A stretch of DNA of 64,000 nucleotides, from the NCBI GenBank assembly GCA_965218425.1, contig OZ244621.1, positions 2,752,001-2,816,000 on the forward strand. Reading direction: 5' to 3'. Positions within the stretch are counted from its first letter, which is position 1. Every line of letters starts with the position of its first letter. A model generated the notes under the pieces. The model was not told the DNA's origin and made no database searches. It saw nothing but the letters and a program-made list of their open reading frames with translations. The DNA comes from an uncultured Candidatus Binatia bacterium (GTDB taxonomy: Bacteria; Desulfobacterota; Binatia; UBA9968; CAXXLF01). Of the stretch, positions 278 through 35,074 are shown in pieces. A program made the position numbers and the translations under genes.

Positions 278-431
278 GCGACAGCGAGAAAAACAAGGGT
301 AGGCGAAAAGGCTAGCAACTCCGCGTAGGTTCTGGGAAAGCTGGCTATTTATGCTGTTGGTCCACCATCCCAAAACGTTCCTCAAAAACCCCATTGATCC
401 CTTTAAAACCGAAACCGTTTCGGTGGAGGCC

Positions 432-551
432 GGCGTCGGGCCTGCCTTTTTGCTATTTTTGGTTTCCTCCCTTTTCGGATTCCGGCTTCTATCGCACCGA
501 TTCTCTCTTGGAATGTCCTGTCCGTTTGGACGCGGTGTTCTAAAGCATGGA
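432..551 (-). repeat. Repeat module A (RAYT-like 3' end) plus the last few nt of module B
   Basis: Near-identical to copies at 6627, 9030, 23472, 24897, 26073 and 34818; translates LEHRVQTDRTFQERIGAIEAGIRKGRKPKIAKRQA. Confidence 0.85.
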
Positions 552-2743: not shown

Positions 2744-2998
2744 CTTGTTTCTCTTTATTCTGCGTAAGCTTTTTCACTCAATTTAAACCATTTACGCGCA
2801 ACTTCCAAGTTTATACGCAAAACTTCCTGCGCATATCCTCTAATCTTGCGTATGGGACGTTAGGCGCAGGTTTGATGCAACCATTTCCATCAAAGCGAAG
2901 CTGCGCAGGCAAAGCCCGGAGTCCATGTTCTGCCCACGGCCGGGTACTATTCAGCCCAACCCTCGGAGAGTTCAAAAGCCTCCCGGGCGGCGGTCGAC

Positions 2999-3217
2999 AA
3001 AGGGGTCAAGCTCCGGCACGATGGCGGTTGTAGTGGCCGTCAAACCTGAAAGGAGAAGACCCCATGCTTTACGTCGGGATAGACCATCACTAACGATACG
3101 CTTAGGTATGCCATCAACGAGAAATGGACAGGACATTCCAAAAGAGAATCGGCACGATGCAAGCTGGAATCCGAAAGGGAAGGAAACCTAAAATAGCAAT
3201 AAGGCAAGCCCGAGCCC
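2999..3217 (+). repeat. Repeat modules B+A (IS110 leader/5' fragment fused to RAYT-like 3' end), internally deleted
   Basis: AGGGGTCAAGCTCC..GAAAGGAGAAGACCCCATGCTTTACGTCGGG.. followed by GGACAGGACATTCC..AAGGCAAGCCCGAGCCC. Confidence 0.85.
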
Positions 3218-6528: not shown

Positions 6529-6529
6529 A

Positions 6530-6905
6530 AAGGGGTCAAATCTTTTGTTGACAAATAACATCTTCCGGATTTTCCCGCCGCCTCCGAAATCTTCCAGCCG
6601 CCCCGCGCTTTAAGTGAATCCCAAAATCGGCGTCATGCTCGCCTTCTTGCTATTCTGGGTTTCCTTTCCTCTCGGATTCCGGCTTGCATCGTGCCGATTC
6701 TCTTTTGGAATGTCCTGTCCGTTTGCACGCGGTGTTCTAAAGCATGTATGCGATCCTATCTCGTCGATTGCATTTTCCCGGGCGTATCGTTTGTGATGGT
6801 CTAACCCGACGTAAAGCATGGGGTCTGCTCCTTTCAGGTTTGACGGCCGTTGCAACCGCCATCCTGCTGGAGCTTGCCCCCTTTTTCATGTTGCCTGATC
6901 CCGAT
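6530..6905. repeat. Composite repeat: module C (+) then modules A and B (-)
   Basis: AAGGGGTCAAATCTTTTGTTGACA..CTTTAAGTGAATCCC, then AAAATCGGCGTCA and the reverse complement of B+A. Confidence 0.9.
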
Positions 6906-7451: not shown

Positions 7452-7721
7452 TGTTTCCTCCCTTCGACCTTGACTACGTTTTGCCGCAAGGCGGCCTTTG
7501 ACGGCCACTCGGGCTTGGCGTCAAGGCTCACGTCCTCCTCGGCTTGGCCCTCGTTGGCCGATAGTTGTACAGCCTCACCGTCACGGTGGGGCGGTCATCG
7601 GATTCAGGCATGGGGCCTCCCGAAAGGGCAGGAGTCATGTCGCCGCCACTTCTTTATTAGGTTTATATTATGACACAAATAAAACCATTGATGCATCAAG
7701 AACCGCTGACAATCCGGAAAG

Positions 7722-7848
7722 AAGAGTTACGGTGCTTTAGGCCGGGCGTGCCATGGGATTCACTTAAAGCGTGAGGCGGCTGGAAGATTTCGCAGGCGGC
7801 TGGAAGATCCGGAAGATGTTATTTGTCAACAAAAGATTTGAACCCTTT
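7722..7848 (-). repeat. Repeat module C (RAYT-like 5' end)
   Basis: Reverse complement AAAGGGTTCAAATCTTTTGTTGACA..CTTTAAGTGAATCCC ATG GCA CGC CCG GCC. Confidence 0.9.
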
Positions 7849-7953
7849 ACCGGCAATCTCCACGGTGTCGGAGTCGATGAGGCGAGTCGCGCCGGTCGGA
7901 GTTTCGGCACTGGCAGGCGCCACGCGCAGTAGGGCCGGCAAAGCAGTTCTCAT
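7848..7953 (-). pseudogene. N-terminal stub of a thermonuclease (SNase) family protein, cut at module C
   Basis: MRTALPALLRVAPASAETPTGATRLIDSDTVEIAG resembles the G..RVIDGDTIEI motif. Confidence 0.55.
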
Positions 7954-8990: not shown

Positions 8991-9029
8991 GACTATCCTT
9001 CCGCCCTCTGCCAAAGGACCGCACGAAAC

Positions 9030-9195
9030 CCGGAGTCATGCCTGCCCTCTTGCTATTCTGGGTTCCCTTCCCTTTCGGATTCCGGCTTGCATTATACCGA
9101 TTCTCTTGTGCAACGTCCTGTCCATCTGGACGCGGCGTTCCAACCAGCGCAACCCACGGCTCATCACTCCGGGATCACGGCTTGAATATCGGTGT
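9030..9195 (-). repeat. Repeat module A, long form
   Basis: RYSSRDPGVMSRGLRWLERRVQMDRTLHKRIGIMQAGIRKGREPRIARGQA* ending GCATGACTCCGG. Confidence 0.85.
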
Positions 9196-10889: not shown

Positions 10890-11042
10890 TATGTATGCGA
10901 TCCTATCTCGTCGGTTGCATTTTCCCGGGCGTATCGTTTGTGATAGTCTAACCCGACGTAAGGCATGGGGTCTTCTCCTTTCAGGTTTGACGGCCGCTGC
11001 AACCGCCAACCTATGGGAGCTTGACCCCGATTCTGACCCCGG
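10890..11042 (-). repeat. Repeat module B with two TGACCCC ends
   Basis: ..GAGCTTGACCCCGATTCTGACCCCGG; encodes the degenerate IS110 start (M)PYVGLDYHKRY. Confidence 0.85.
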
Positions 11043-12036: not shown

Positions 12037-12751
12037 ACTGTCTCTCCCGCGTCCATCGCTCGCCCCTCAAGGCGCCGGGCGCGATAGTCGGCCCTGCTTA
12101 GGAACACCTTTCGGCGGGCGGATCCTCGGTTCATCGAATGATGGACTGCACCCCGATATTCAATGCGTAAGGGCCGTGACATTGATAGCCTTAATTACAG
12201 TCCACATTCCAATTATCGACAAGTTCGCCACCCCGCAAGGGCCGTCGTTTGCACAAATTAAATTAGCGCTTAGGCATAAATTTTTCCGTTTTACAAGGTG
12301 TGCCCGAAACGCTTATCAAAGAAAGTGCTCAGACTTTGGCTTGGAAGCGCCTGGTCCCGTACTACGGGCGGCTCCGTGCGGTTCGACGCATCGCCCGCGG
12401 GGGTTCCATGGAGCGCCTCATGAAACGAACTCAAGAAGGAAAAGGAGCAAGTGTTAGCAAAGAGGCGAAGGGAAGATAAACAAAGGCGACTTGCTCAAGT
12501 ACTCGCACTATCGAAGTTGTCTCGTCCGTACAGGTGTATACCGGACCAGCTTCAACGCTTGAGCGGTCCATTGCGGGGTTACCCGATATGGCCACTTGGG
12601 AAGTGAGAGAGGCTCATCATACTTTACAGTTGGGGGTTTTACTTATTTTTCCCCCACGAGGGCGGAGCGGCCATGCAGGTTGCTCAACCTGTCAATGTGT
12701 TCATTCCTCCCTGGGTGGGCACATGCCCCTTCGCCCGTCCTCACCTTGGAG

Positions 12752-18356: not shown

Positions 18357-18383
18357 GCTTTTCCTCCTCTGAAATTTCGTTAT

Positions 18384-18761
18384 TTAGGAATGCGCTGAAA
18401 GAGCCAACATCGACAGCGCTTTTATCCTCTCCCACCCTCCGTCTTCAAGGAGGGCCTGCGAGACAAAGACGTAATCATCTGAAGGTAGAAACTGTGGGAC
18501 AGAACAGATAGCCCCGGTAAAGTATTCAATGAATTCCTGGTCTCGACGGGAACGCATCGCAAGGAAGGCATCCATACAGATCTTTTGCCTTGCCTCTATG
18601 TATGCGGGCGGGATTGATATTTTCCCGTCAGGTGTTTTCTTGTCTTTAAAGTCACTCCATTTAATCTTTGATCTAGCCTCAGTCTTTTGCCGGACATAAG
18701 CACCCATCATGTCGTAGATGCGTTTCTCTAGCGACTGAGGTTTAACTGTGTCCTCTGCCAT
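18384..18761 (-). CDS. cas11: Putative internally translated Cas11 small subunit (125 aa), in frame within cas8
   Basis: CAGGAGG-8nt-ATG GCA GAG in the cas8 frame. Confidence 0.75.
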   Translation of the reverse strand: MAEDTVKPQSLEKRIYDMMGAYVRQKTEARSKIKWSDFKDKKTPDGKISIPPAYIEARQKICMDAFLAMRSRRDQEFIEYFTGAICSVPQFLPSDDYVFVSQALLEDGGWERIKALSMLALSAHS

Positions 18762-20048
18762 AGCGTGAGCCTCCTGTGAACGTTTGAAGTCTTCAGTAAG
18801 GGTTTCGAACTTCTTGCGGGCGTCAAAAGAAAAGAGAGCGAATCCTTTCGGCGTTTTTTCTGTGCGAATGAAAAATTCGGCTGGATGGTTCGAGAACAAT
18901 CCAAGAAAATCTTCCGTCCAATCAAGCTCCCGCAGAAGGTTCAGCAATAATCGCGATTTGAAGAACGGATTTCGGCATGACTGCCTGATGCTTTCGTATC
19001 GGGTCAGCAAGCCATCCCGTGGAATGATTTTATCGGTAGTATGAGTCTTGACGTTATTCCCTTGTTTTTCCAAGGAGAAGAGTTCGATCGCGCTTACACT
19101 GTACTTGACGTTTTCACTTTCCGCCTTTTGCTGCGCAATAAGTGACAGATTGCGGAGGAACTCCAGTCCACCTTCTTCTGGGATATCGATTATGGAAGCC
19201 GCAGGACGGTAACCCCGTAACTGAGGATCAAGCGTAGCCAATGAGGCAGGGAAAACATCACAGAATTCTTCTAAGTCGCTTACCTCCGGGATAGCAAGGA
19301 CATATCCTTTGATCTCATTGTTGCCTTTTCTGTTGATAGTTTCCGGGACAAAAATGTTGAGAGTGAGCGGCCAAAAGTGGAGCAGAAGATTCTGAGTCAC
19401 GACTCCCTTAAACGGGACCTTCTCCGCGTTGGATGCTTGCGCTCCCACAAAGAGTGAACCCGAAATTGTGTCAACGATAGGTTGTGCTTGTTCCTTTTTC
19501 TGCACAGCTTCGCTTAACGCCTTCCATGATGATTTTGCTTCCTGACATTGGTGATGATCTGCTCGTTGCTCGTAAACCTTGCGTGTGGTGGGTTGCGCTC
19601 TTAGGGTTGCCCAAAGCATGTCACGCCAGAGCTTAAGCCAACCCTCTTCAACCCCAGGATAGTGATGCCCCAGGAATGAAGCCTTCGGTTCGATTACATC
19701 GTAGACGTAAATTTTATTTTTCTTAACTTTTCCACTCTTCTCATCTTGGCTCTCCTCCATCTCTTCCCGTTTGGGTGTTTTCCCAGGCCGTTTGGATTTG
19801 AAGCGCCGTTCTACTTGCGCTGCGTCATAAAGGTCATCAAAAACGGTTTGCATCGAATCCTGAGTAAATATTAGCTTCACACCGGTCGCTGAAAGATTGT
19901 TCACCTTCGGTAATGGACCGGCTCCACGTTGTTGAAGAGATTCAATCAAAAGAAGTAAACCGGCGAGACCAGCTTTATGCTGGGCGCTGGGGAGATCGAA
20001 TAGATTGTAGGATAATACAATCTCTTTTATAGGAGTTGCTCTTGTCAT
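18384..20048 (-). CDS. cas8: Cas8 large subunit (Cmx8)
   Basis: LFDLPSAQHKAGLAGLLL..LWRDMLW..GAQASNAEKVPF..LLLHFWP. Confidence 0.92.
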   Translation of the reverse strand: MTRATPIKEIVLSYNLFDLPSAQHKAGLAGLLLLIESLQQRGAGPLPKVNNLSATGVKLIFTQDSMQTVFDDLYDAAQVERRFKSKRPGKTPKREEMEESQDEKSGKVKKNKIYVYDVIEPKASFLGHHYPGVEEGWLKLWRDMLWATLRAQPTTRKVYEQRADHHQCQEAKSSWKALSEAVQKKEQAQPIVDTISGSLFVGAQASNAEKVPFKGVVTQNLLLHFWPLTLNIFVPETINRKGNNEIKGYVLAIPEVSDLEEFCDVFPASLATLDPQLRGYRPAASIIDIPEEGGLEFLRNLSLIAQQKAESENVKYSVSAIELFSLEKQGNNVKTHTTDKIIPRDGLLTRYESIRQSCRNPFFKSRLLLNLLRELDWTEDFLGLFSNHPAEFFIRTEKTPKGFALFSFDARKKFETLTEDFKRSQEAHAMAEDTVKPQSLEKRIYDMMGAYVRQKTEARSKIKWSDFKDKKTPDGKISIPPAYIEARQKICMDAFLAMRSRRDQEFIEYFTGAICSVPQFLPSDDYVFVSQALLEDGGWERIKALSMLALSAHS

Positions 20049-20052
20049 TATT

Positions 20053-22371
20053 TCAGTCCTTCACCCCTACAAGCCGGTCAAGAAAACCATAGGCAGGATG
20101 GTAATGAGTAGCGGGAGCCACTTTCAAAAATCGTCCCAGAGATGAGCATGATTTAGCAAACCGCCTTGGGACCGGCACAACGAATCCATCCGTTGGCTGC
20201 CTATGCTTTACTGCCAAAAGCCAGTCCTGCATATCGATGTCGAGGATGGCGGGCACCGTGAATTCCTCTCCCTCTCGATATGCGTAACTCATCGCATAAC
20301 AACCACTTTCCAAAAAACTGCTGAACCGTTCGGGTTCACGCTGGACGGGCTGATGTTCGGCCATAGTCGCTTCCAAGTATGCTTGAGAGAAGACTTTTCC
20401 ATCAAGTACGTGTATGAAGGATTGAGCGTCGCTGATTTCTTCGGGCTTATAGGGAAGGCCATCTGTCGCTGGATAAACATAGACTTCTCCACATTTCCCA
20501 TCTCCAGGCTTTCCTCTTCTGTTACAACGCCCCATCCTCTGAATGAGAGCAGTAATCGGCGCGTATTCTGAAAGTAAAACATCAGCGTCGAGATCCAGGC
20601 TCATCTCACAAACTTGGGTCGTGACTGCGAGGAAAGGGCCTGTCTCTCCCTGAAATGCGTTGATGACCGACTTATGTTGTGTCCTCCGATCAGTAAGTCT
20701 GAAGCGACTGTGGTAGCACTGGACTATCCCGTCACCGAACTGTTGCCCCATTGAGAGCGCAATATCCTGACATTTCCTAACCTGGTTAGTAACCCACAGC
20801 ACTTTCTTCTTTTCTTGAAGAGCTTGCCGGGCTTTTCTCTCTGCGTCCTCGCGTGAAGTAATATGGAGGCGGTAGCGGGGGTGTTCGGCTCTTTCTTTCA
20901 AGTCGTCGAGATTGTTAAGCGTTTCAGGAAAAAGCTGCAGGCCGCACTCGTCAACTAAGGTGCGCCGCCTCCCCTCTGACAGTGTGGCAGTCATGCACAG
21001 CACAGGGACATCAAACTGTTTGAGAAATGTCGTAAAAGCAGAAAACATCGCTTTGTCAAAACTATGGATCTCATCTACAACGATGACGCTATCGACAAGC
21101 AGAGGCAGTAGGCACAATGGGCCATATTGGTTTTGCATGAAGGCTAAAAACTGGTCTGCTGTCGCACTGAAAAGACGTTTTTGCCAGAATCCTAGTGCGT
21201 AGAGACGTTGTTCCGTAGTGAAATTCTTCTCCGTTCGGGTATCAGCAGGATTTTCAAACATTTCCTCCAGGTCATAGGCTGCTGTACCATGAGCCAGCGC
21301 TGCATCTTCTTCCGGAGCCCAGGCTACATAGTCCCGAAAGCCTTCCGTTGCGGTCGCACGTGTTGGATAAAGAAAGAGCACACGGGTCGCCGGCTTTTTC
21401 TGTAGGCGCGTCGCAATCCAGTTCCAGGCTGCCAGGGTTTTTCCGCTTCCACATGGAGCGAGCAAGAGGGCTCGCTCGCTAAGGGTGCTCGCCTGCTTCT
21501 GGAAATCTTGGAGCTTAAAATTGCTTTCGGTTTTTCTCTCGATCTCCCGAACGCGGGGAAAAATAACTTTGTCACGGATGTCCTGAGCTGAAAGAGGATC
21601 TCCAAATGAAGCTTTTAACCAGCTTTCAAGATCATGACCTTCCCGGACTACGCCTGACCCTGCCGAGTCCGCGGCGAGGAGGGCTGCCTTTACGCTGCAC
21701 AGAAATGAAAGCTGCTGTGGATCTTTACTTATTGCTCTCCCAAAACGATGTGCTTGGTGTTTTGCGGAATTAAGGAGGTCCGTGAGATTGAATAAAGAAG
21801 AGGAGTCTGTCTGGAAACTCCAGAAAAGAGGAATATTGGGTCGAAAGGGGACTGGCAGGCTAAGTGTCTCACCAATAACGTCAAGCAGCTCTGTAAAACC
21901 GCTTTTATCTCCGAGAACGCGGAATGAATCGCTCATCCCTAGCGGTTGACCCCAGCGGTCTGGATCAATCTTTAGGTGGTGAGAGATAACGCTGGATAGC
22001 ACGACATCGAAGTCGAGCAGAGGATTGCAACTAAGCCACCATTTGAAATCCGGCAAACTTAATAAAAGACCGCTCAAATGTTCGTGACGAATGCTTTGGT
22101 CGCCGTTTCGTCTGACAACTTTTTGGAATCCATCATTTGCTTTGCCAAGATCATGGCAGGCTGCGGCTGCTAACGTATTCATGAGAAAACGTTCATAGTC
22201 CTCATTTTTCAGGCGGAAAAAGCGTAGCCATTCCCGAGCGAGACGTGTAGGGGCATTGGCATTGCCGTAAAGCAACTCTACGGATGCCATAATATCCTTT
22301 GTGTGGCACAGCAACGTTTTTGGTTGCCTACCTGGAATTGGACTTTTTGCTAAGATTATTCCTTCCATCAA
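20053..22371 (-). CDS. cas3: Cas3 HD nuclease-helicase
   Basis: HDLGKAN, APCGSGKT, DEIH, MTAT, QRMGRCNR. Confidence 0.97.
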   Translation of the reverse strand: MMEGIILAKSPIPGRQPKTLLCHTKDIMASVELLYGNANAPTRLAREWLRFFRLKNEDYERFLMNTLAAAACHDLGKANDGFQKVVRRNGDQSIRHEHLSGLLLSLPDFKWWLSCNPLLDFDVVLSSVISHHLKIDPDRWGQPLGMSDSFRVLGDKSGFTELLDVIGETLSLPVPFRPNIPLFWSFQTDSSSLFNLTDLLNSAKHQAHRFGRAISKDPQQLSFLCSVKAALLAADSAGSGVVREGHDLESWLKASFGDPLSAQDIRDKVIFPRVREIERKTESNFKLQDFQKQASTLSERALLLAPCGSGKTLAAWNWIATRLQKKPATRVLFLYPTRATATEGFRDYVAWAPEEDAALAHGTAAYDLEEMFENPADTRTEKNFTTEQRLYALGFWQKRLFSATADQFLAFMQNQYGPLCLLPLLVDSVIVVDEIHSFDKAMFSAFTTFLKQFDVPVLCMTATLSEGRRRTLVDECGLQLFPETLNNLDDLKERAEHPRYRLHITSREDAERKARQALQEKKKVLWVTNQVRKCQDIALSMGQQFGDGIVQCYHSRFRLTDRRTQHKSVINAFQGETGPFLAVTTQVCEMSLDLDADVLLSEYAPITALIQRMGRCNRRGKPGDGKCGEVYVYPATDGLPYKPEEISDAQSFIHVLDGKVFSQAYLEATMAEHQPVQREPERFSSFLESGCYAMSYAYREGEEFTVPAILDIDMQDWLLAVKHRQPTDGFVVPVPRRFAKSCSSLGRFLKVAPATHYHPAYGFLDRLVGVKD

Positions 22372-22953
22372 CTAGCCTCTCCACGGCACGAACACACCAC
22401 AACCCATCCGCCTACGACCACCTAAGCCGTTCTCTTGGAGGGTCAGGGATTCCTCTGCTGTGAGTTGGGTGACGAATAATTCAAATCCAACCACCTGCTT
22501 GTCCTTGACCCGGAAGGTGCGCCGCTGGCCCAAGGTGGCCTCGCACGTAACGTCGAGACTTTGCAACTTGCGCTGTACGGCTTCGAGAAAGTCCGCCTCT
22601 TCAAGAAATCCCTTGATCGTAACCAATCGAGCGCGGAGACGGGCGGCTGGCAGGAGCATACGGACTTCCGGTACACCCACGCTGAGAGGGTGTTCGTCCA
22701 CGTCCAATCTTTTCCCGGCCAGCTTTAGATAAGAACGAATCCGGTCATCTGGAAGGCGCAGTATCAAACGAGAAAAATCCATTAATTGGAGTTTCCCGTT
22801 TCCGTTATACATGCCGCGAATAGGCTGAACGCCAAGGGCTTTTGCCTCGTGTATCTCCGGAACAACCCGGCTCAGCGCCGCGTATAAAGCATAGCCATGG
22901 TCAACGGGAACGGTCGATCCGTTCAGGCGAAAAGCTAGATCAATATGCGGCAT
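22372..22953 (-). CDS. cas6: Cas6 (Cmx6 type)
   Basis: MPHIDLAFRLNGSTVPVDHGYALY..GLGGRRRMGCGVF; the longer ORF runs into module C. Confidence 0.93.
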   Translation of the reverse strand: MPHIDLAFRLNGSTVPVDHGYALYAALSRVVPEIHEAKALGVQPIRGMYNGNGKLQLMDFSRLILRLPDDRIRSYLKLAGKRLDVDEHPLSVGVPEVRMLLPAARLRARLVTIKGFLEEADFLEAVQRKLQSLDVTCEATLGQRRTFRVKDKQVVGFELFVTQLTAEESLTLQENGLGGRRRMGCGVFVPWRG

Positions 22954-23039
22954 TGCGATGGAACTGTTGTCAAATTGTGGGTAAAAAGATCCCGGCGGCG
23001 ACTCTGGTTCTTTCGATTTGAACCCCGTCTCAGTATACA

Positions 23040-23190
23040 AAGAGGTCAAATCTTTTATTGACAAATAAAATCTTCCGGATTTTCCATCCGCCTCACGCTT
23101 TAAGTGAATCCCAAAATCGGCGTCAGGCTTGCCTTCTTGCTATTTGGGTTTCCATCCCTTTCGGATTCCGGCCTGTATTGCACCGATTCA
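23040..23190. repeat. Module C (+) joined to truncated module A (-), same junction as at 6530
   Basis: AAGAGGTCAAATCTTTTATTGACA..TAAGTGAATCCCAAAATCGGCGTCAGGCTTGCCTTCTTGC. Confidence 0.9.
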
Positions 23191-23471
23191 CGTCACCCCG
23201 GCCGAAAAGGCAATTGTTCCAGTCAGCGCCCATACGGTCGGGGTGGCGTCTTTCGCGTGCGGCTTCGACGACGTATCGAATGACACTGAACTCCGACCAT
23301 CGGTCCGGAACTTCAAGCGTGCCCACACCAAAGTCGGATCACTGTCTTAATGATAAGCCTGTCTCGCGCGAGTTGTGAAATGGAAAGATTTGGGGCTCAG
23401 GGCTAATTCAATTTGGGCAAATGCGGGGGTCGTTGCCGCCGTCGTTGCGGGGGCTCGACGGCGATGCGGGG

Positions 23472-23750
23472 CCGGAGTCATTCTTGCCTTCTTGCTATCC
23501 TGGGTTTCCTTCCCTTTCGGATTCCAGCTTGTACTGTGCCAACTCTCCTCCGCAATGTCCTGTCCATCTGGACGTGGTGTTCTAAGGCATGGATCCGATC
23601 CTTTCTCGTCGATTGCATTTACCTGAGCGTGTCGCTTGTGATAGTCTAACCCGACGTAAAGCATGGGGTCTTCTCCTTTCAGGTTTGACGGCCGCTACAA
23701 CCGCCATCCTGCTGGAGCTTGGCCCCATTTTCATGTAACCTGACGCCGGT
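23472..23750 (-). repeat. Repeat modules B+A
   Basis: Encodes MLYVGLDYHKRHAQVNAIDEKG; ends CGGCGTCAGG and TGACTCCGG. Confidence 0.9.
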
Positions 23751-23792
23751 TTTTGTTTGTCAATCGTAAGATTCGAAAGGAGACAAAACGGG

Positions 23793-24848
23793 ATGCGATA
23801 CTCCCGCTTATTGATACAAGGCATTCTGATACTGCTGACAATTTGTTCTGTTCAAAACGCGTTTGCCCAGGCAACGAATACTCCTCTTTATGTTGACCTT
23901 AACAAAACATTGGGTTTTATCATAGGACAACGTTTCACGCTAAATCGCATCAAGGCTGAATACCCAGCCTTATCTTTGCGAGTTATTGAGGTAGAACTTA
24001 AATTCAAGCTTTCTTTTGGCACTGCTGAAAAGAATATTCAGAAGGCCCTGAGAGACAACCTCAAGGATCGATATTCTGAATATATCGCATCAATGGAGAA
24101 TCAGATCGAGTCTACTTTGATTTCTCAACAGATAAATCAAAAAATTGCCGTGCATTTTCTTCGTAAGGTAGAGTCCAGAGCAAAGGGGAAAGTACCTTCT
24201 CCGATGCTTGAAACCCTTTTAAGTTATCAGTTTGAGGATAGGCCGGCCCAAGAATTCAATCGAGGATTTAAGGCTGTATATCGGACAAAAGGGCATCCCA
24301 AAGCAAAGGGTTTAGATTTTCAGGTAGAGTATCCGAAAAGCTGGTTATCGCAAGAGGGAAAGAGACCCAACATCATTCAGATTTTCAGTAGCAACAACGG
24401 AAGAGGGCCTGTTTATGCATTGATCATGACACGCGACCTTATGAAAGATGCGCAAGGGGAGCTAACTGGTGAAGAGATTACGGCTCTTAAAACACTTGAA
24501 TGGAGCGAGGAGTTAGCTTCGGAAATCTTTTCGGATGGTAGCCTTCGAGAAATGGCAAAAGGCATTGGTATGGACAATGTCCGAGACATAGTCACCAAAA
24601 GAGTTGTATTGGATGGTTGGCCCGGAGCGATGCTTTCATTAATAGGCGATATGCAGCGCATTGATACTATACTGACGATGTACAACCGGGTGTATATCGC
24701 CATATATAAAAATTACATGCTTTTCTTGCAACTTCAGATTGCGAAGTTGCCAAGTGATACGGAGGGCGCTCTGAAAGCTAGGGTCTCAAAGATTTTACCG
24801 CTTTTTCGCCTTATGGCAAATAGCTTGGTGATACAAAGTCAATATTGA
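23793..24848 (+). CDS. Secreted hypothetical protein
   Basis: 351-aa AT-rich ORF with signal peptide ..QNAFA. Confidence 0.8.
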   Translation: MRYSRLLIQGILILLTICSVQNAFAQATNTPLYVDLNKTLGFIIGQRFTLNRIKAEYPALSLRVIEVELKFKLSFGTAEKNIQKALRDNLKDRYSEYIASMENQIESTLISQQINQKIAVHFLRKVESRAKGKVPSPMLETLLSYQFEDRPAQEFNRGFKAVYRTKGHPKAKGLDFQVEYPKSWLSQEGKRPNIIQIFSSNNGRGPVYALIMTRDLMKDAQGELTGEEITALKTLEWSEELASEIFSDGSLREMAKGIGMDNVRDIVTKRVVLDGWPGAMLSLIGDMQRIDTILTMYNRVYIAIYKNYMLFLQLQIAKLPSDTEGALKARVSKILPLFRLMANSLVIQSQY

Positions 24849-24896
24849 GCATCTAACTGGGTGCTCCACCGGACGGCAATTCCACTATGCTGGGGC

Positions 24897-25070
24897 CGGG
24901 GTCATGCTTGCCTTCTTGCTATTCTGGGTTTCCTTCCCTTTCGGATTCCAGCTTGTATCGTGCCAGTTCTCTCTTGGAATGTCCTGTCCGTCTGGACGCG
25001 GTGTTCTAATCAGCGCAACCCACGGCTCATCGCTCCGGCATCACGGCTTGAATATCGGGTAGCCTCCATG
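24897..25070 (-). repeat. Repeat module A, long form, ending GCATGACCCCGG
   Basis: MEATRYSSRDAGAMSRGLR*LEHRVQTDRTFQERTGTIQAGIRKGRKPRIARRQA*. Confidence 0.88.
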
Positions 25071-25133
25071 AGTCGGCATCCGGCTTCTTCAACCCCTATC
25101 TTCGCCATAATCCGGCGTATCCGACTTATCTCT

Positions 25134-25247
25134 CTACACGTAGGCGTAGAGTTCGTAGCCGAATCGGGTTGGCAGCCCTTGAAGGATCGCAAGGTAGCGT
25201 TGGCGGTCATCGTCATCGCGGAAGATGAGGCGGCCTTGGTTGGCGCG
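25134..25247 (-). pseudogene. RAYT / Y1 HUH transposase internal fragment
   Basis: RANQGRLIFRDDDDRQRYLAILQGLPTRFGYELYAYV*, matching the RGN..IF.DD.DR..YL..LYAYVLM segment before the HUH motif. Confidence 0.75.
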
Positions 25248-25567
25248 GCGTGTCTATTTCATCGAGCACTTCAAATAGCAATAAGACATGCTTGACACCA
25301 TCCTCTTGCTGATTTCCGCAGGACCGAGACATTCACTCCCATGCTTGGCTTCGAGCAGTACATCCAGCACGGCTTCCTCTAGGCAAAATTCACCGATCCT
25401 GGCGAACTGTTTGGGTCTGATTCCACTCATGATCGAGCCTCCTTGTTTCTGTTTTCTACCAGTCGGATGGCTTGAAAGGATCTTTCTGATTCGATAGGGA
25501 TAGGATGGGTGTTTCTTACTGTGACCAGTATCCTGGATAATTCCCCAAAATTTGAAGGAGACCGAGT

Positions 25568-26038
25568 ATGACCATACGTAGAGTAGGATTGATCTTTGCC
25601 GTGTTTCTTGCAATGACCGTGCATCCGCAAATGGCCACTGCCGATTCAATGCTTGAATCCGAGAAGCAGAGAGTAGTCAAGCTTGTCGAGGAGGCAGTCA
25701 CGGTGGTGAACGCCAAGGGGAGAGACGCCTTTTCCATCTTTTACAAGAAAGGAACCATGTGGCGTAAAGGCGAAACCTACATTTTTATCGGTAACAGCGA
25801 TGGCGTGATGCTTTTCAATGCGAGCTCGGGAGGAGAGAATATAATCGATCCCCCGGACGCCAGACAGAGACCTCATCGTCAAGCCTTCGTCAAAACGATA
25901 ACAACCAAGGGTTCGGGATGGGTGAAGTATATGTGGCCCAAACCCGGCCAAAAAACACCGGCCAAAAAGATGAGCTATGTAAAGAAAGCGAAGCTGGGAG
26001 ACAAGATCGTATTCGTCGGATCGGGCATCTACTACTAG
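25568..26038 (+). CDS. Secreted single Cache-domain protein, possibly degraded centrally
   Basis: Signal peptide; ETYIFI..KGSGWVKYMWPKPG..KKMSYV..VGSGIY. Confidence 0.85.
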   Translation: MTIRRVGLIFAVFLAMTVHPQMATADSMLESEKQRVVKLVEEAVTVVNAKGRDAFSIFYKKGTMWRKGETYIFIGNSDGVMLFNASSGGENIIDPPDARQRPHRQAFVKTITTKGSGWVKYMWPKPGQKTPAKKMSYVKKAKLGDKIVFVGSGIYY

Positions 26039-26072
26039 GGATCAGTTGTCCCACCACTAATATGTGGTGTCA

Positions 26073-26450
26073 GCCTTTCCTTTCGGATTCCGGCTTGTAT
26101 CGTGCCGATTCTCTCTTGGAATGTCCTGTCCATTTGGACGCGGTGTTCTAAGCATGGATGCGATCCTTTCTCGTCGATGGCACTTACCTGGGCGTATCGC
26201 TTGCGATGGTCTAACCCGACGTAAAGCATGGGGTCTTCTCCTTTCAGGTTTGATGGCCGCTACAACCACCATCCTGCTGGAGCTTGACCCCTTTTTCATG
26301 TTACCTGACCCCCATGTTGGGTAATTTGGAGTGAAGAGTTACGGTGCGGCGGGCCGGGCGTGCCATGGGATTCACTTAAAGCGTGAGGCGGATAGAAGAT
26401 TTCGGAGGCGGCTGGAAAATCCGGAAGATGTTATTTGTCAACAAATGATT
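26073..26450 (-). mobile_element. Most complete composite C-B-A unit (putative non-autonomous RAYT-derived element), interrupted at its C end by IS3
   Basis: Minus strand: C end, ATGGCACGCCCGGCCCGC (MARPAR), GGGGTCAGG, GGGGTCAAG hairpin, IS110 start, module A. Confidence 0.75.
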
Positions 26451-27693
26451 TGAGGTAGCCCAGGTTTGACGGACACCTAAAAAGGGGACAAGATCCCCGC
26501 AGGAGGTGTTCGATGGGCAAGCGAAGGCGTTTCACCCAAGAGTTTAAGTTGGAAGCTGTTCGACTGCTGGAGGCGGGCGCTCGGCCAGCAGCGGAGATTG
26601 CACGGGAACTGGGAGTACCTCGCAATCGACTGTACAAGTGGCAGGAGCAAGTGACGAGGAAAGGGGCGGCTGCGTTTCCCGGCACAGGTCGAGGTAGAGA
26701 CAACGATGAGGTAGCACGGTTAAGGCGAGAGCTGGAGCGGGTAACGGAACAACGAGATATATTAAAAAAGGCCGCAGCGTACTTTGCCAAGGAGCTCAAG
26801 TAAAGTACGCGTTTATACGAGCTCACAGGACAGAGTTTAGGGTAGTGAGGATGTGCGAGGTATTAGAGGTCAGTCGTAGTGGGTACTACGACTGGAGCGG
26901 TGGAGGGGAGTCTCGGCGTAGAGCACAGGATAAGGTTGTGATCAAAGAGATCCGCAAGGTGCACGAGAGCTACAAGGAAGCGTACGGGGCAGTCAAGACA
27001 TGGCTGACGCTGAAGGAGGCGGGGGTGACATGTGGGAAGCATGGGGTGGCGAGGCTGAGGAGTTTAGTGGGGATAGAGACGCGTCGGGTGCAAAGGTTTC
27101 GATTGGCCTACAAGGCTCGTCACAGTGCGCCACCGGCACCGAACTTGTTGCGTCAACGCTTCGAAGCGTCAGGCCCCGACCAGGTATGGATGGCCGATAT
27201 TACCTTCATTGGTACCCGATCTGGGTGGTTATACCTGGCGGTAGTGGTGGACCTTTACTCTCGGCTGGTGGTGGGATGGTCAATGAAGCAACGTCCCACA
27301 CAGGAGTTGGTCAGTGAAGCTTTACTGATGGCTATCGAACAGCGCCAGCCTATGGCGGGGCTGATTCACCATAGCGACCAAGGAATCCAATACGCTAGCA
27401 ATCACTACGTTGAGTTGCTCAAACGCCATGGGGTGGTGCGCAGCATGAGCCGCAAAGGGAATTGCTACGACAATGCAGTGGTCGAGAGTTTGTTCAGCTC
27501 ACTAAAGAATGAACTTGTACACCATCAGGATTATAAGACGAGGCAGGACGCTAGGTCGGATATCTTCGACTACATTGAACTGTTCTACAACCGAAGAAGA
27601 AAGCATGAGTCGTTGGGATACCACACCCCAATGGCATATGACTCGATCAAACGTGTGGCTTAATTAACTGTCCGTGAAACCCGGGTCGCTTCA
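26451..27693 (+). mobile_element. Intact IS3-family element, 1243 bp
   Basis: IRL TGAGGTAGCCCAGGTTTGACGGACA; IRR (rc) TGAAGCGACCCGGGTTTCACGGACA; ATT 3-bp target duplication. Confidence 0.95.
26513..27663 (+). CDS. IS3 transposase OrfA (26513-26803) / OrfB joined by -1 frameshift
   Basis: AAAAAAG slippery site at 26764-26770; WMADITF, HHSDQG, DNAVVESLF DDE motifs. Confidence 0.95.
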
Positions 27694-27706
27694 ATTTGAC
27701 CCCTTT

Positions 27707-28935
27707 GTCGATTCGGGTAGAGAGCTCGAAGGGATCAGTTGTCTTAAGCGTGTGCTTGAGGGCTGCGAGCTTTTTGGGATCTCCCTTTCGGGACTCCACG
27801 ACCCGCTCAAAGGGGGTACAGGGCGTGTCATAGCGGCGAATAAGTCGAGAGCCTTTACGGATTTTGCATTGCAGTTTCATCGAGGGCTGGAACAGATTCT
27901 GGAAGATCCTAAGCTCATCATAGAGCTGGTTGGTGGACTCTTGGGCCTTTGCGGTGTCGTAGCGATCCCAGCCCATAAGCTTTCTGACATGGGTCCAGTT
28001 TTTCTGCTCGATGTGGGCGTTGTCGTCTTTTTTGTAGGGTCGCGGGCGGGTGAACTGGATAGTACGGCCAGCTGGGCGTTGTTGACAGAAAGCAAGAAGG
28101 TGGTTGTTGATGAACTCGCTGCCGTTGTCAGAGTCGATCCCCTTGAGAGGGAAAGGAAGCTGGTGTTCGATCTCGGTGACCGCATTCAAGATACCCAAGG
28201 CGCTCTTACCCATGACGGCCTTGCGCTCTACCCAGCAGGTAGCAATGTCGACACAGTCCAGGCTATGGACAAACTCCCCAACCGCTGAGGCCCCTGAGTG
28301 TGACACCAGGTCAATCTCCAGATAGCCCGGCCGGTTCACATCCCAATGATCGGTCTTAATGGGAATCATCTGCTTGAGCAGCGATCCGGGCCGAGTGGTG
28401 CCATAGAGTCGGCGTTTTACGATGTGCTTGGTTGCCCTCAGGCGCCGATCCATCTGACGGGCACTGATGGCCAGGAGCTGATCCTCTACCGATTGGGTCA
28501 GCTCGAAGTGTTGCCTTATCCAGGGCAACCAGTGCACAAGGGCGGCCTTCAGACGTTGGGAGCACAGATACCCCGAGGCCTCCCACACCTTTGCCAAAAT
28601 CCTTACCATCGCCCGACTGTATGTAGGAGAGTGTGGTGCACTCCGTTTGCGTACAGTCGTCTCGGGCAAGGGCCGGTTTAAAAGCCAGATGGCATATTTG
28701 CGGTTGTAGCCGCAAACCTTGTAGAATTCCTCTAACATCATCTTCTTCTCCGCCCGTTGTGCCTGGCGGTAACGTTCATAGATGGATCGTAAATACTCCC
28801 GCTTGGATCGTCGTGCCATGGTGAACCCTTCCATTGTTGTCCTCCTTGAGCCCTAACATGAGCCCTTGGAGGGTTAGAATTACAAATGGCGCAACGAATG
28901 GTCTTTGGGTTAGATTATACACGGCGCAATACGGC
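27707..28935 (-). mobile_element. DDE (rve) transposase, ISNCY-like (CDS from 28819), 3'-truncated at the module C end; repeated end motifs at 28871-28935
   Basis: PGYLEIDLVSHSG, DSDNGSEF, DDNAHIEQKN; two GGGTTAGA..GGCGCAA repeats upstream. Confidence 0.8.
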
Positions 28936-29110
28936 GGGTTGACATCATAGTCCGTTATCGGATACACTCTACCCCAAAGTGAAAGACGGGCGGCCAGTTT
29001 GGACGTCCTAGCGCTCCTTGGCACTTTCGAGAGTGCGCCGATAAGTGGCCGTGCCGGGAATCCTTGGCTTCTGGCAAGCTGGACCTCAAAAGGATAGTTC
29101 CACCAATAAG

Positions 29111-30334
29111 ATGACACCGAAAAACATTGGATCGAGCTCGCTGCTTTCTTTATCTTTGGGGTGCCTCTTGATGCCCAGGAGAATGAGAGGCTTGGCCCAG
29201 AATGGTTGAGTCTGGACGGTAGCGTTGGGCTCTTCGACAATAAGGATACAGCAAGGGAAATCGGCCGTAGAAAAAGTGCTTGGCGTCAATATCACCGGCT
29301 TCCTCGATACTAGCTACACCTGGAGTTCCAATCACCCAGGCTTTGGCAATGATGATGATCTCAGTGTTAGGGTATTCGACCTGGACCATAACGAGGTCGT
29401 CTGTAATCATTTTAACCTGACCCTAGAAAGGCCTGAGTCAGAGAAAGGCTGGGGGATTGGCGGTAAATTGGTAGCCGACTTTGGTCGGACGGCGGAACTG
29501 CTTAGGGAGGCCATCTTGTGGGGTGATAAGTTACAGACAGAGCCCTCGGCAGAGTTGCGCGAGGCTTACGTGACTACTACCCTTCCCATCGGAAAGGGGC
29601 TTGGAATACAAGGGGGGCTATTCGTGACGCTCCTTGGCACCGAAATTATCCCTAACCCAGGTGCATACAACGACAACATTTCCCGATCTTTCTTGTTCGG
29701 TTTTTCAATTCCTTTTCGGCATCTCGGCGTGCTGTTCAGTTACCCGCTCCATGATACGCTCACGCTCTCGGCTGGTCCCGTTACGGGCTGGGATAATCCA
29801 CGCGATAACAACACGGTACCCACATTCCTGGGCGGGCTGACCTTCGAGCCTACGGACAATTTCTCCTTTGTCAGCAGTCTTGTCTACGGCGCAGAGCAAG
29901 ACAACAACAGCGGTCGTAAGAGGTTCGCCTCGGCGAACATCGCAAGCTATAGCCCTATTGATCCGCTGTCCTTCATCGTCGAATACACTTATGGCTATGA
30001 GGAGAAGGTAACAGCGAGCTTACGCAACGGCACATGGCAAGGAGTAGCTGGGATAGTTTCTTTCAATTGGACAGACCGCTTCAATACAGCGTTCAGGGCA
30101 GAGTTCTTCCGTGACCACGATGGCACGCGTATAGGAGGAGAAATTGTAGGGGGCCAGGCGGACGTGAAAGTGAGGGAAATCACGTTTACCGGCACCTAGA
30201 AGTTTACCGGCCAGCTATGGGGACGTTTCGAGGTGCGTCAAGACTGGTCTGACGCAAGAGTTTTCCAAGAAGGCAACACTGGGGCCGATAAGAACCAGAC
30301 AAGTATTGGCCTGCAAGCCATCTACACGTTTTAA
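29111..30334 (+). pseudogene. Outer-membrane beta-barrel (putative porin) gene with degraded 5' end and in-frame TAG
   Basis: GLFVTLLGTE..NDNISRSFLFGFSIPFRHLG; after TAG at 30197-30199 the frame continues KFTGQLWGRFEVRQDWS..LQAIYTF*. Confidence 0.75.
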
Positions 30335-30893
30335 TGAGAGTAACTTTAAGGCGGGGATGGACAATCATTAAAAGGTGCAAAAGGGGTACAAAAAAAGATT
30401 CTGTTGCAAGCTAAACGAAAATTACCCGTGATTTCCCATAATTTGAGCCTCAATAAGCGGATAATTCGCGTCTATGAAATCGTTGCACGCGAAATCTCCC
30501 TGTTGTGGAACCGAAATCTATCGCTTTGGCGCTCGACGTCGTCAGTACAGCCATTGCAAGCGAACATGGAGTATCCGCGCAGCAAAAAACGAGGCCGCAG
30601 ACCTTGGCGAGCTTCGCCCCGATTCGTAGAAGCAGTCTTGTTGCAGGGGCGGACTCTGAAAGATATTGCTCTGCGCCGCGGCCTTACGCCCCAAGCCATG
30701 GGTCAAACCTGATGGCTCTGAAGCCCTGTCATAAAAATAGAGCGGTCTTCCTGGATCCTCTGCTCTTTCCTGGGCGGGAGGAAGTCTGCCGCTGGTCGCA
30801 GGCCTTCAGCACCATCCCCGCACGAATACACAGGCGCATCCGCGCCTCACAGCTCACGGCGGCCGAAGCACCAACACATTGGTCTGGGAGACA

Positions 30894-32138
30894 ATGAAGA
30901 TGATCGATACTGGAAACACCGCTTTCATGCTCGTTGCGGCGAGTTTGGTCCTGATCATGACCCCTGGCCTCGCCTTCTTCTATGGCGGGCTTGTGGGTCG
31001 CAAGAACGTGCTGACCATCATGATGCAGAGCATCGTGTCCCTGGGGGTGACCACGATCCTGTGGGTCACCGTGGGTTACTCCCTTTGCTTCGGGACCGAT
31101 GTCTACGGGATCATCGGCAATCCCATCGATCACATCCTGCTGCGGAACATCGCACCCACCGATCTCTCTACCGACCTTGACATACCGGTGTTCGTCTTTG
31201 TGACCTACCAGCTGATGTTCGCCATCATTACTCCCGCCCTGATCACCGGGGCGTTCGCCAATCGGGTGCCGTTCAAGGCCTACCTGATCTTCCTGGTGGG
31301 GTGGCTGCTGTTCGTCTACTTCCCCTTTGTCCATATGATCTGGGGAGGGGGCTGGCTGGCAGATTGGGGTGTGCTCGATTTCGCCGGTGGCATCGTCGTG
31401 CACGAGCTGGCCGGCCTGGCGGCGCTCGCCACCGTGTTCGTCGTGGGCGCTCGCCAGGTCCATGATCCCGAGCCCCATAACATCCCGTTTGTCGCCCTGG
31501 GGACGGCGTTGCTGTGGTTCGGCTGGTTCGGCTTCAATGCCGGGAGCGCACTCGCCGCGAGCGGTGTCACTGGCCTCGCTTTCCTCAACACCCAGATCGG
31601 CGCCTCGTTCGCAGCGGTGACCTGGATGGCGTTCGACTGGGTCGTCAAGGGGAAACCTTCTGTGGTGGGTTTCTGTGTCGGGGCGGTGGCCGGATTGGCC
31701 ACAATCACACCGACAGCGGGTTATATTGACCCTCAAAGTGCCATGCTGCTCGGAATACTTGCCGGATCCGTGTGCTATGCTGCCGTTATCTTCCGGAAAA
31801 AGATGGACTGGGACGACGCCCTCGATGTGTGGGGGGTGCACGGTGTAGGCGGAGTGTTGGGGATCCTGTTATTGGGACTGTTTGCTACGACGGGCATGAA
31901 TGCCGCTGGTGCCGATGGTCTCTTCTTCGGAGGTCCCGAGTTCTTCTTAAAAGAACTGGTTGCCGTCCTGTTCGCCGCCGCCTGGGCCTTCGGATTCACC
32001 TTCGGGATGCTAAAACTGATCAACATTTTTACGCCAGTGAGGGTCTCCAAGTCGGTCGAACGAACCGGGTTGGACAGTGCCCTGCATGGCGAGTCGGCAT
32101 ACATCGAGGCAGGGTCGGCCGAGATCGAAGAGGAATAG
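30894..32138 (+). CDS. amtB: Ammonium transporter
   Basis: MTPGLAFFYGG, DFAGGIVVH, WFGWFGFNAGS, DDALDVWGVHG. Confidence 0.97.
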   Translation: MKMIDTGNTAFMLVAASLVLIMTPGLAFFYGGLVGRKNVLTIMMQSIVSLGVTTILWVTVGYSLCFGTDVYGIIGNPIDHILLRNIAPTDLSTDLDIPVFVFVTYQLMFAIITPALITGAFANRVPFKAYLIFLVGWLLFVYFPFVHMIWGGGWLADWGVLDFAGGIVVHELAGLAALATVFVVGARQVHDPEPHNIPFVALGTALLWFGWFGFNAGSALAASGVTGLAFLNTQIGASFAAVTWMAFDWVVKGKPSVVGFCVGAVAGLATITPTAGYIDPQSAMLLGILAGSVCYAAVIFRKKMDWDDALDVWGVHGVGGVLGILLLGLFATTGMNAAGADGLFFGGPEFFLKELVAVLFAAAWAFGFTFGMLKLINIFTPVRVSKSVERTGLDSALHGESAYIEAGSAEIEEE

Positions 32139-32583
32139 ATCGGAACCCGAGAGCGATCCAGGGGGGCTGTCCGATAAACCGCCGCCGAGACCCGGTGAGC
32201 CATTATCACCCGCAGGGCCAGCATCTTAGAGACCTCGCACAACTGCGAGCCTGCCGTGAGTGTTTCGTCTCAAGGCGGCGGCGAACGGCCGGGTGTTCGT
32301 CTCTATGCGGAGTCGACCGGAAGTCTCCATAAATCCCGGGGTGGCCCAAATTCCCCACGTTATGAGTAATCAGATGAAACGGCATGGAGGGTATTTCGTT
32401 ATACACATTCAAGCCGTTCCTGACGCTCCCCCATGGCGTTGAAAGCATCAGATTTATCCGGTGAGTACCCTTATTAACTTCGTTAGCTAAGACGCCTAAT
32501 AAACCCTCGCATGTCTTGGGAACTATTTCTGTAATAGTCTAGGGGACATTGCTTCCGAAAGAGCTTTATCGTAGCTGGTTGAT

Positions 32584-32810
32584 ATGCCTCGGCAAGCGCG
32601 CCTCGATGCTCCTGGTATTCTGCACCACGTGGTGGTGCGAGGGTTCGAGCGCCGCCCCATCTTTCGGGACAACGTTGACCGGCGCGACTTCTGCGCCCGG
32701 TTGGGGGGACTGGTGGAAGGGACTACCCTAACCGTGTACGCGTGGGCTCTGCTCCCGAACCACGCGCACCTCCTGCTCCAGACGGGCCAGCGGCCCCTGG
32801 CTCTGTGTAA
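32584..32810 (+). pseudogene. RAYT / Y1 HUH transposase N-terminal part, truncated
   Basis: MPRQARLDAPGILHHVVVRGFERRPIFRD..YAWALLPNHAHLLL; homology stops at TAGGGGACAT. Confidence 0.9.
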
Positions 32811-32829
32811 TAGGGGACATCCTATAGTC

Positions 32830-33141
32830 TCCTTGTCAAGTAATAATTTCTTGGCATTAGTTTTTCAATAGAATCAGCACATTGCAAATCCTGCCGGATT
32901 GATCACACACTTCTACACTAAGCCTGCACACAGGCTTTGATATTTTCTGGCGAGTCTCTCACTACCTTCGAACTTAGCACCTCATCGTTACAAGTATTCG
33001 GTGTACCTGCTTTTAGTCACCCATCATCCCTTATCCAGGTTGCAAAGTTCAGTGAGAGGCCCCTGTATTGTCCCTCCCGAGGTCCTTGTTTGGCCTCTAC
33101 GTTGCGTCTCGGGGTCCTCCCTCGCCAAGGTCAAATAGACT
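32830..33141 (-). ncRNA. Long noncoding end downstream of the IS110 ORF, candidate bridge/seek RNA locus
   Basis: About 300 bp noncoding stretch directly 3' of the transposase; inferred from position only. Confidence 0.4.
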
Positions 33142-34671: not shown

Positions 34672-34927
34672 CCGGGGTCAGGTTATATGAAAAAGGGGTC
34701 AAGCTCCAGCAGGATGGCGGTTGTAGCAGCCATCAAACCTGAAAGGAGAAGATCCCATCCTTTACGTCGGGTTAGACTGCCACAAACGATACACCCAGGT
34801 AGATGCCATTGACCGGAAAGCACCGCGTCCAAACGGACAGGACATTCCAAGAGAGAATTGGCACGATACAAGCTGGAATCCGAAAGGGAAGGAAACCCAG
34901 AATAGCAAAAAGGCAAGGCTGAGCCCG
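34672..34927 (+). repeat. Repeat modules B+A
   Basis: CCGGGGTCAGGTTATATGAAAAAGGGGTCAAGCTCC..AGGCAAGGCTGAGCCCG. Confidence 0.9.
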
Positions 34928-35074
34928 ATTCAAATAGTCAGGAGGATCGTCAGCTAGCGACTGAAAATCAGTCTGCCCTTGCTGTTTTAGCCATTTCTTA
35001 GCCAAACGTTCGTCATTGCTCTTTCCATTATTCACCAGGTAAAAATACATCCCATATTCAGTTCCCATCGAACA

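Follow-up and report, generated by a model that had tools for sequence, protein, structure and literature searches.

Organization of the locus

The window, by which we mean the whole 64,000-nucleotide stretch of DNA that was analysed (G000:C1:2752001-2816000), lies in a single-contig genome of 4.46 Mb (G000), which is compared below with a relative of the same genus (G001) and with a member of the same family but of another genus (G002). Between positions 26073 and 26450 it holds a composite of three parts, modules A, B and C, which an earlier sequence-only reading had described as a RAYT 5' end, an IS110 leader and a RAYT 3' end; the strings quoted in that reading are indeed found here on the minus strand. 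The 381-base stretch covering this region gives 14 further BLAST matches within the window and 90 across G000, itself counted, both far above chance. The features of the composite and of its neighbours are as follows.

26066..26151, minus strand: module A, the 3' end of transposase R1 (82% identity over 77 bases; alignment of 25 fused copies)
26151..26165, minus strand: linker, an internal scrap of an IS1111-type transposase gene, about codons 141-146
26165..26229, minus strand: module B coding part, the first 21-22 codons of an IS1111-type IS110-family transposase (start of the DEDD domain)
26230..26306, minus strand: short IS left end and leader; the guide RNA, located at the 3' end in intact relatives, is absent
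26304-26306 and 26278-26298, minus strand: AGG core and subterminal inverted repeat, respectively
26307..26318, minus strand: outer tip of an R1-type TIR, GGGGTC plus about 6 semi-conserved outer bases (tip tables, base profile)
26319..26450, plus strand: module C, the 3' end of transposase R3 past the DnaA-like helix-turn-helix, with the inner terminal repeat (82% to L049)
26349-26366: MARPAR, an antisense reading of R3
26451..27693: young IS3-family element, 99.8% to its family, in the R3 terminal repeat, with a 3-base duplication
27694..27708, plus strand: outer tip of the R3 terminal repeat, displaced by the IS3 insertion; module C truly ends here
27709..28935, minus strand: IS481-like element, lacking about 220 bases where it meets the R3 tip

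The sequence is thus a real mosaic, of which one module and the history had been misread: a chimera of RAYT-like and IS110-family parts stands, and its supposed RAYT 5' end (module C) does not. Neither does the element end at 26450, where the earlier boundary had been drawn, because the IS3 element splits the outer inverted repeat of module C and the tip lies beyond it. The IS481-like element that follows is 90% identical to the family of G000 itself and 94% to that of G001. The same modules recur at other positions of the window.

428..551, minus strand: module A with about 10 linker bases, module B absent
2996..3217, plus strand: module B (from its subterminal repeat) fused to A, shorter junction
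6529..6902: C fragment next to a full B-A mini-element whose junction is that of the sequence-only reading
7713..7849, plus strand: C fragment, R3 3' end with tip
9027..9192, minus strand: long module A
10902..11028, minus strand: module B without A, running into another module
12084..12222, minus strand: true R3 5' part, with start codon and first residues
13061..13172, minus strand: C fragment, one border of a type I-B CRISPR-Cas block
23039..23747: composite of C, A, spacer module, A and B, flanking the CRISPR-Cas block on its other side
24896..25299, minus strand: R1 mini-element with an internal deletion, combining both ends (5' and 3') of one gene
34674..34930, plus strand: B-A mini-element, third junction type

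Modules A and C: the 3' ends of two transposases

A profile search with PF01797 finds four Y1 genes in G000. One of them, R1, encodes an intact 325-aa Y1 transposase (G000:2583267-2584241, inside an island), and its 3' end is module A, which bears out the earlier assignment of this module to a RAYT-like 3' end; the copy at 26066..26151 has lost about 30 bases ahead of the terminal repeat and keeps a TIR-tip remnant at 26066-26073. The transposases R1, R2 and R3 pass the PF01797 cut-off (63, 52 and 51 bits), sequences of these types carry the HVH/HYH and YxHLNP motifs, and the TIRYT scores against the canonical RAYT model NF047646 are 66-73, under the cut-off of 80. The R1 gene is framed by a 31-base imperfect inverted repeat that starts with GGGG, each tip being one base off the consensus GGGGWSAS; the R2 TIRs carry the exact motif, the R3 TIR differs in the last base, and 10 of 19 scored homologous loci have the exact motif. 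Framing of a gene by inverted repeats that carry a GGGGWSAS-type motif is, in the available sections of Di Nocera et al. 2013 (PMC3733652), the arrangement of the TIRtron and its TIRYT transposase, which Quentin et al. 2018 (PMC6006769), again in the part available, equate with TnpA-Y1 subclass 2.1. Judged by domain content and TIR motif, R1 and R3 are probably members of this subclass; the DnaA-like helix-turn-helix PF08299 reaches 26 bits in R1 (E=1e-5), below the cut-off of 31.5, and 36 bits in R3 (E=7e-9).

This R3 sequence comes from G001, where an intact 319-aa gene (L049; PF01797 E=2e-13) matches window positions 26325-26453 with its last 129 bases at 82%. On the plus strand, module C therefore corresponds to the 3' end of a second Y1 transposase, and longer copies of the module read, on that other strand, as a transposase C-terminus stopping inside the terminal repeat; from these two observations it follows that module C is a 3' end in inverted orientation. 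The MARPAR peptide, taken earlier for a RAYT start, belongs to a frame that closes after 17 codons and is a chance reading antisense to the R3 C-terminus. Some module C copies in G000 are mini-elements that join the R3 tail to the true R3 start, with both ends kept. In G000 as a whole, R1 and R2 are intact, a third TIRYT gene is frameshifted, and R3 survives as mini-elements only.

Two unfused long A forms had also been proposed, and the one at 9030 holds, whereas at 24897 the module adjoins the 5' part of its own transposase gene, forming an internally deleted mini-element. An IS origin was considered for the DNA ahead of the long A at 9030 and rejected, the alignment scores being those of the background.

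Several observations on related repeats may be recorded here. The frameshifted TIRYT gene (L004, G000:1971014-1971700) has a GGGGTCAG tip, and an IS200-type gene at about G000:1072000 adjoins an IS3. A further repeat, module D (G000:669011-669212 and about 19 copies), begins with 17 bases that are the R2 TIR, and its tips are much better conserved than those of R1 or R3; no parent of module D was found.

Module B and its IS1111-type relatives

The 22-residue module B peptide alone has no Pfam match, and the longest genomic copy of B, of 60 codons, matches PF01548 weakly and below the cut-off (E=0.005). The peptide nevertheless agrees at 68-77% with the IS110-family proteins P0002, P0003 and P0007 and with a fragment in L035; a search with the 92-residue L035 relative returns 125 proteins, the best (88%) being the 353-aa IS110 transposase P0002, a DEDD transposase with PF01548 and PF02371 that scores 244 bits against NF033542 (cut-off 140). 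The DNA of module B is 87% identical (129/148) to the left end of the intact element L093, with 4 mismatches in the first 94 bases. Protein, profile and DNA thus concur with the earlier view of module B as an IS110 N-terminus related to the DEDD enzymes. The linker comes from the same kind of gene: longer copies read KNRIHALVDR, and positions 466-529 of the intact elements L092 and L096, near codons 141-150, match genomic copies at 80-84% (BLAST E 5e-6 to 7e-5). Parents or relatives are accordingly in hand for every module of the stretch (R1, R3 and an IS of the L093 type); both recombinase families named in the sequence-only reading are represented, by three parents and not two.

When metagenomes were scanned for the left-end motif, 16 stretches were recovered; 6 carry both element ends and represent five distinct intact relatives (L092, L093, L096, L097/L102 and L106). 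All five have a short left end, imperfect subterminal inverted repeats and a structured, long 3' non-coding region; a duplicated AGG core and a right-end inverted repeat are present in L092, L093 and L096, and the terminal extensions measure about 8 and 4 bases. The guide loop reads GGGTCAGG in L092, L093 and L096 and CTAGCAGG in L097/L102 and L106, and it tracks the flank, with 8-9 bases matching the element's own left flank in four of the five. By inspection and folding, the matches to the left and right flanks are 8 and 9 bases in L097, 8 and 7 in L093, 9 and 4 in L092 and 5 and 5 in L096; in L106, where the left flank was compared, the match is 8 bases. Between the second L092 loop and R1-type tips of G000 there are matches of 6-8 bases. 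Because the 3' guide loop of the intact relatives matches the TIR tip, the IS most likely entered by programmed insertion. On this sequence evidence, module B would have arisen when an IS1111-type element hit an R1-type TIR, and the tip at 26307..26318 would have been left behind on that insertion and later joined into module C.

The IS right-end motif is absent from G000, where no match extends beyond IS position 529 and neither a guide RNA nor a close full-length parent was found; with the query used, no close full-length parent of module B turned up in G001-G004 either. Without a right end, guide RNA or full parent in G000, the IS110 part is best seen as a passenger. The window's own IS110 (33142-34428) was considered as a parent of module B and rejected, being of a distant type with no match to the B peptide; G000 has no full IS110 genes other than this one, of 428 aa, and its identical copy at G000:4378485-4379768. 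In two other records (L035 and L101), a TIR palindrome truncates the same IS left end as that of module B.

Two further features of these elements deserve mention. In L092, L093, L096, L097 and L106, the target-binding stem starts inside the last transposase codons. A Nitrospirae record (L039:2850-4230) contains a full IS1111-type element with terminal extensions of 7 and 3 bases, which sits in sequence resembling a TIRYT terminal repeat.

Junctions between modules and the history of the copies

G000 contains 44 copies of module B: 25 are fused to module A, and the remaining 19 to other modules or to unique DNA. The 24 other B-A copies are 81-92.5% identical to the one studied here, and the description of a non-autonomous, multicopy and diverged element is sustained. 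Its supposed local spread is not: the B copies are distributed over many islands of G000, with matches in G001 and G002, the two of 40 relatives searched in which module B is present. They are strongly clustered, the median nearest-neighbour distance being 3,980 bases as against 36,146 for random placement (lowest of 2,000 draws, 12,519).

The sequence-only reading held that a single C-B-A or B-A chimera, formed once, was copied as a unit and diverged by mutation, and it made a common fusion point the touchstone of that view. The fusion point it described is shared by the copies at 6740, 23585 and 26155, while the one at 540 has about 10 bases of the junction and no module B, and the window's two other B-A copies (at about 3128 and 34820) have different junctions. 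Across G000, the 25 fused copies fall into six junction types, found in 8, 5, 5, 2, 2 and 3 copies, the type of the earlier reading accounting for 5; because the fusion points differ in this way, amplification as one unit fails by its own touchstone. Two IS-to-A crossover points are each found with long and short B (8, 5, 5 and 2 copies). The three C-B-A triples, two in G000 and one in G001, have three different B-A junctions, and the C-B joint, present five times in G000 and once in G001, has six different right-hand partners (a candidate at 669443 proved on inspection to be a pattern error and is left out). In favour of a single chimera, the B-to-linker joint is common to 13 of the 25 fused copies, and the shorter forms could be derived from it by later deletions. 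The combinatorial junctions, together with the 19 B copies that have no A, nonetheless contradict it as a full account; some of the copies are likely to share an ancestor, and the model as a whole is improbable.

Site patterns within the copies discriminate less well. Distances in B and in A are uncorrelated (r=-0.12, 12 copies), and 52% of 946 site pairs are incompatible, near pairs being more compatible than far ones (p=0.02), which speaks against one clonal origin. We do not take the four-gamete and Mantel tests as proof of recombination, since in 9-51% of simulations a clonal, star-like tree with uneven rates also attains 52%; as clonal simulations can reproduce such patterns, firm evidence against a single clonal spread comes from the structural combinations alone. 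In contigs from four public runs covering window positions 20000-35100, the joints of the repeat copies are indistinguishable from those of the family's other loci.

The tips and the enzyme that may act on them

No target duplication is seen at the 21 complete B-A mini-elements, where the mean longest repeat is 2.9 bases as against 3.0 +/- 0.2 in shuffled sequences, which argues against the DDE transposases of a classical MITE. IS110 elements likewise make no target duplication, and an IS110-family recombinase could in principle move the mini-element through its retained left end, in which the core and the subterminal repeat are well kept; sub-modules of ISPpu9 move as circles, according to the available part of one report (PMC12288879). 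An IS110 mini-element requires both IS ends for the donor joint, and with only the left end present this enzyme is unlikely to be the mover. The lack of a guide RNA in G000 and of a close parent in G000-G004 tells against it as well, as do the distant type of the only full IS110 genes and the bounding of the copies outside the core, at the TIR tip, and we regard such movement as very improbable.

A TIRYT acting in trans would fit best as the mover, and the whole family may be accounted for by TIRYT-driven tip joining and recombination between copies. Conservation of the tips drops about 6 bases outside the GGGG run, and within this run the R1 and B tips are degenerate. Four pairs of copies have cargo in common that meets a tip in one member and runs past that point in the other, the joint containing 2-5 extra bases. 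Such breaks at tips also follow from simple insertion of a mini-element with adjacent deletion, without cargo capture. A clean empty site was looked for and none was found. A hairpin at the junction, considered as covariation between the bases outside and inside the tip, was rejected, as only the innermost pair, 1 of 8 positions, exceeds shuffled sequences.

We propose a history of four steps. In the first, suggested by the intact relatives, an IS1111-type bridge/seek-RNA element programmed for TIR tips would have entered the terminal repeat of an R1-type TIRtron, leaving a TIR tip attached to the IS left end. The second can be read from the junctions: through deletions at short microhomologies, the IS gene was cut back and fused at several different points to the R1 3' end, producing mini-elements with a tip at each end. 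In the third, a TIRYT supplied in trans (intact R1 or R2) would join TIR tips to new DNA without target duplication, an activity that may have put the B tip into the R3 3' end and that would make tip-adjacent deletions. In the fourth, recombination between copies that are 81-93% alike would exchange modules and the cargo between them, and the repeats would thereby act as joints for rearranging accessory blocks and passing them between species. Taking identity and history jointly, we think it somewhat probable that 26073-26450 belongs to a mosaic family of non-autonomous TIRtron derivatives, spread across the genome, that arose through these four steps of IS insertion, trimming, tip joining and recombination.

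The tips are also the address of other mobile elements. Of the 14 full copies of the IS3 family (1,244 bases) in G000, 9 are inserted 3-4 bases past GGGG[AT]C (background 0.0006 per base), and since many of these copies are outside the islands studied, their placement suggests further TIR repeat families in this genome. IS1182-like copies also sit in terminal repeats. In G001, a 2-kb group II intron (TIGR04416, 392 bits; L050:9741-11736 and copies) inserts at TGACC within TIR tips, and R3, R1 or B repeats contain five of the seven left junctions seen.

Relation to described systems

Considered alone, the chimera is mobile-element debris, and TIRtrons, TIR repeat families, C-terminal fragments among variable genes and repeat-targeting IS1111 elements have all been described already. 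With TIRtrons, as portrayed in the sections available of the two papers (PMC3733652, PMC6006769), the present elements share the Y1/HUH core, the DnaA-like C-terminal helix-turn-helix, the TIR framing and orphan TIR repeats in dimers and clusters; those sections deal with short TIR families and describe neither cargo nor mechanism, whereas here we find 100-700-base mosaics of two or more TIRtron ends and IS scraps, placed between cargo genes that cross genera. Fragments of subclass 2.1 TnpA-REP among prochlorosin genes were reported by Laurenceau et al. [quoted passage not shown] The prochlorosin loci have one cargo family and no inverted repeats were found in them, in contrast to the diverse cargo and clear TIR tips described here.

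The repeat-targeting IS1111 group comprises, in the available text of two papers (PMC11187229, PMC11208160), IS4321/IS5075 at Tn21 TIRs, ISKpn4/ISPst6 at attC and ISPa11 at REP sequences. The intact relatives of module B resemble them in the short left end, the subterminal inverted repeats, the 3' non-coding RNA loops that match both target strands, and the choice of a repeated mobile-element site as target. They differ from the members described in that text in that the target is a TIRYT terminal repeat and the extensions seem one base longer than the published 7 and 3, and in G000 only scraps survive.

TnpA-REP performs HUH cleavage and strand transfer on single strands and is associated with REP/BIME mosaics, as laid out in the portion available of a further paper (PMC8266576). 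The present repeats are likewise mosaic and non-coding and probably depend on single-strand HUH chemistry; the cleavage and strand transfer that we ascribe to TIRYTs are borrowed from TnpA-REP by analogy. Unlike REP/BIME as depicted there, the tips have no GTAG-tagged hairpin REP, and the repeats hold coding scraps and cluster in islands. Group 1 RAYTs look the most IS-like, according to the available part of Bertels et al. (10.1101/119735). In the literature searched, we found no report of TIRYT repeats serving as IS1111 targets (cases may exist in subscription papers, ISfinder entries or supplements), no report of TIRYT-bounded cargo across genera (subscription papers and supplements may contain cases) and no TIRYT biochemistry in the sense of cutting or joining of TIR DNA.

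Islands, shared cargo and the possible role of the tips

The repeats of the window separate genes for Fic, TonB-C, MAPEG, Sel1, a decarboxylase and DUF4268 proteins, a type I-B CRISPR-Cas block and a Cache-domain gene, and MmeI and Mrr lie directly beyond the last repeat copy. In other islands, about 29 of 122 scanned ORFs (200 called) have Pfam names that we read as defence-type, a count made without a background control, and many further ORFs are metabolic. Only a few small islands lie near tRNA genes. The CRISPR-Cas block occurs twice in G000, at window 13367-23064 and at G000:223400-233300 (within 223-234 kb); the two are about 87-90% alike in aligned parts, their spacers differ, and the same repeat mosaics are found at both borders.

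Six blocks are common to G000 and G001 or G002, with cargo 97.5-99% identical against a core DNA identity of 81-91% (G001) and 72-78% (G002), and G001 and G002 share one 4-kb block at 99.9%; the cargo gene next to the repeat at 2996..3217 is shared with G001 at 99%. Two cross-genome blocks start exactly at a B tip (G000:1560971, shared with G001, and G000:1579741, shared with G001 and G002), and two cargo genes adjacent in G001 are 1.2 Mb apart in G000, the switch lying inside module A. In 4 of 11 block pairs the repeats are far more diverged than the cargo (repeat/cargo identities 90.6/97.9, 87/99, 90.2/96.8 and 94.4/98); in the other seven, identity is similar in both, marginally higher in the repeat, or hard to judge from the little repeat available. 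The 42 shared blocks have 84 ends, of which 11 fall no more than 6 bases from a tip; removal of two same-site repeats leaves 9 of 82, where about 1% would be expected (p=1.5e-7; counts made by hand, against a uniform and possibly lenient null).

Integron arrays consist of variable genes separated by degenerate repeats that are targeted by specialised ISs and group II introns. The islands resemble them in that variable genes stand between degenerate repeats with IS and group II intron invaders of their own, and differ in that no integrase was found, the cargo lies in both orientations and reaches 10 kb, and the repeats are, by eye, unlike attC. No integron integrase was found in G000: there are five PF00589 matches, none integron-type among those identified, namely genes of XerD and XerC type (TIGR02249 136 and 116 bits, cut-off 265), a 450-aa gene beside the tmRNA, one broken gene and one fragment. 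We put forward tentatively, as a serious possibility that falls short of being probable, that TIRYTs run an integron-like capture and shuffling, in which the tips would be recombination sites, the mosaics their scars, and the tip-bounded defence and metabolic cargo a load that crosses genera, at sites active enough to have parasites of their own. These parasites would, by analogy with those of attC, be the RNA-programmed IS1111 clade, the IS3 family and the group II intron.

The same anatomy could be passive debris, a possible if somewhat doubtful reading in which mini-elements made by TIRYTs and the ISs that target them pile up in insertion-tolerant islands, deleting neighbours, while integrative elements, plasmids or transformation carry the cargo and the repeats ride along, reshuffled by host recombination alone. 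It would explain why many modules are scraps of other ISs and why certain shared blocks span several kb and end elsewhere than at tips, as is true of 73 of the 82 ends; a broken tyrosine integrase in one island and an integrase fragment in another also suit it. Among ten young IS families examined, no truncation maps to a tip, which fits debris as well, and tip activity therefore cannot be dated as recent. Set against this reading are the enrichment of block ends at tips, the two independent cross-genome blocks that start exactly at the B tip, and the lack of an intact integrase in any island.

TIRYT-type genes are common (a close homologue occurs in 82 of 123 genomes searched in the same order), yet have no demonstrated function in the literature consulted. 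The locus offers concrete substrates, namely the tips, a cut zone and an intact enzyme in the same genome, together with the transfer of cargo across genera, and these make the question of TIRYT function testable. A natural clade of bridge-RNA recombinases, judging from its guide loops, is apparently programmed against TIRYT ends, which independently hints that such ends are common, lasting targets.

Repeat variation within cargo genes was noted in passing. The TonB C-terminal protein (window 4880-6460) has four near-identical tandem repeats of about 64 residues at 5240-6123, and an ankyrin-repeat cargo gene, which adjoins a duplicated nuclease/phosphatase gene, differs in repeat number between the two islands that carry it (G000:1681150-1682010 and 1938900-1940300).
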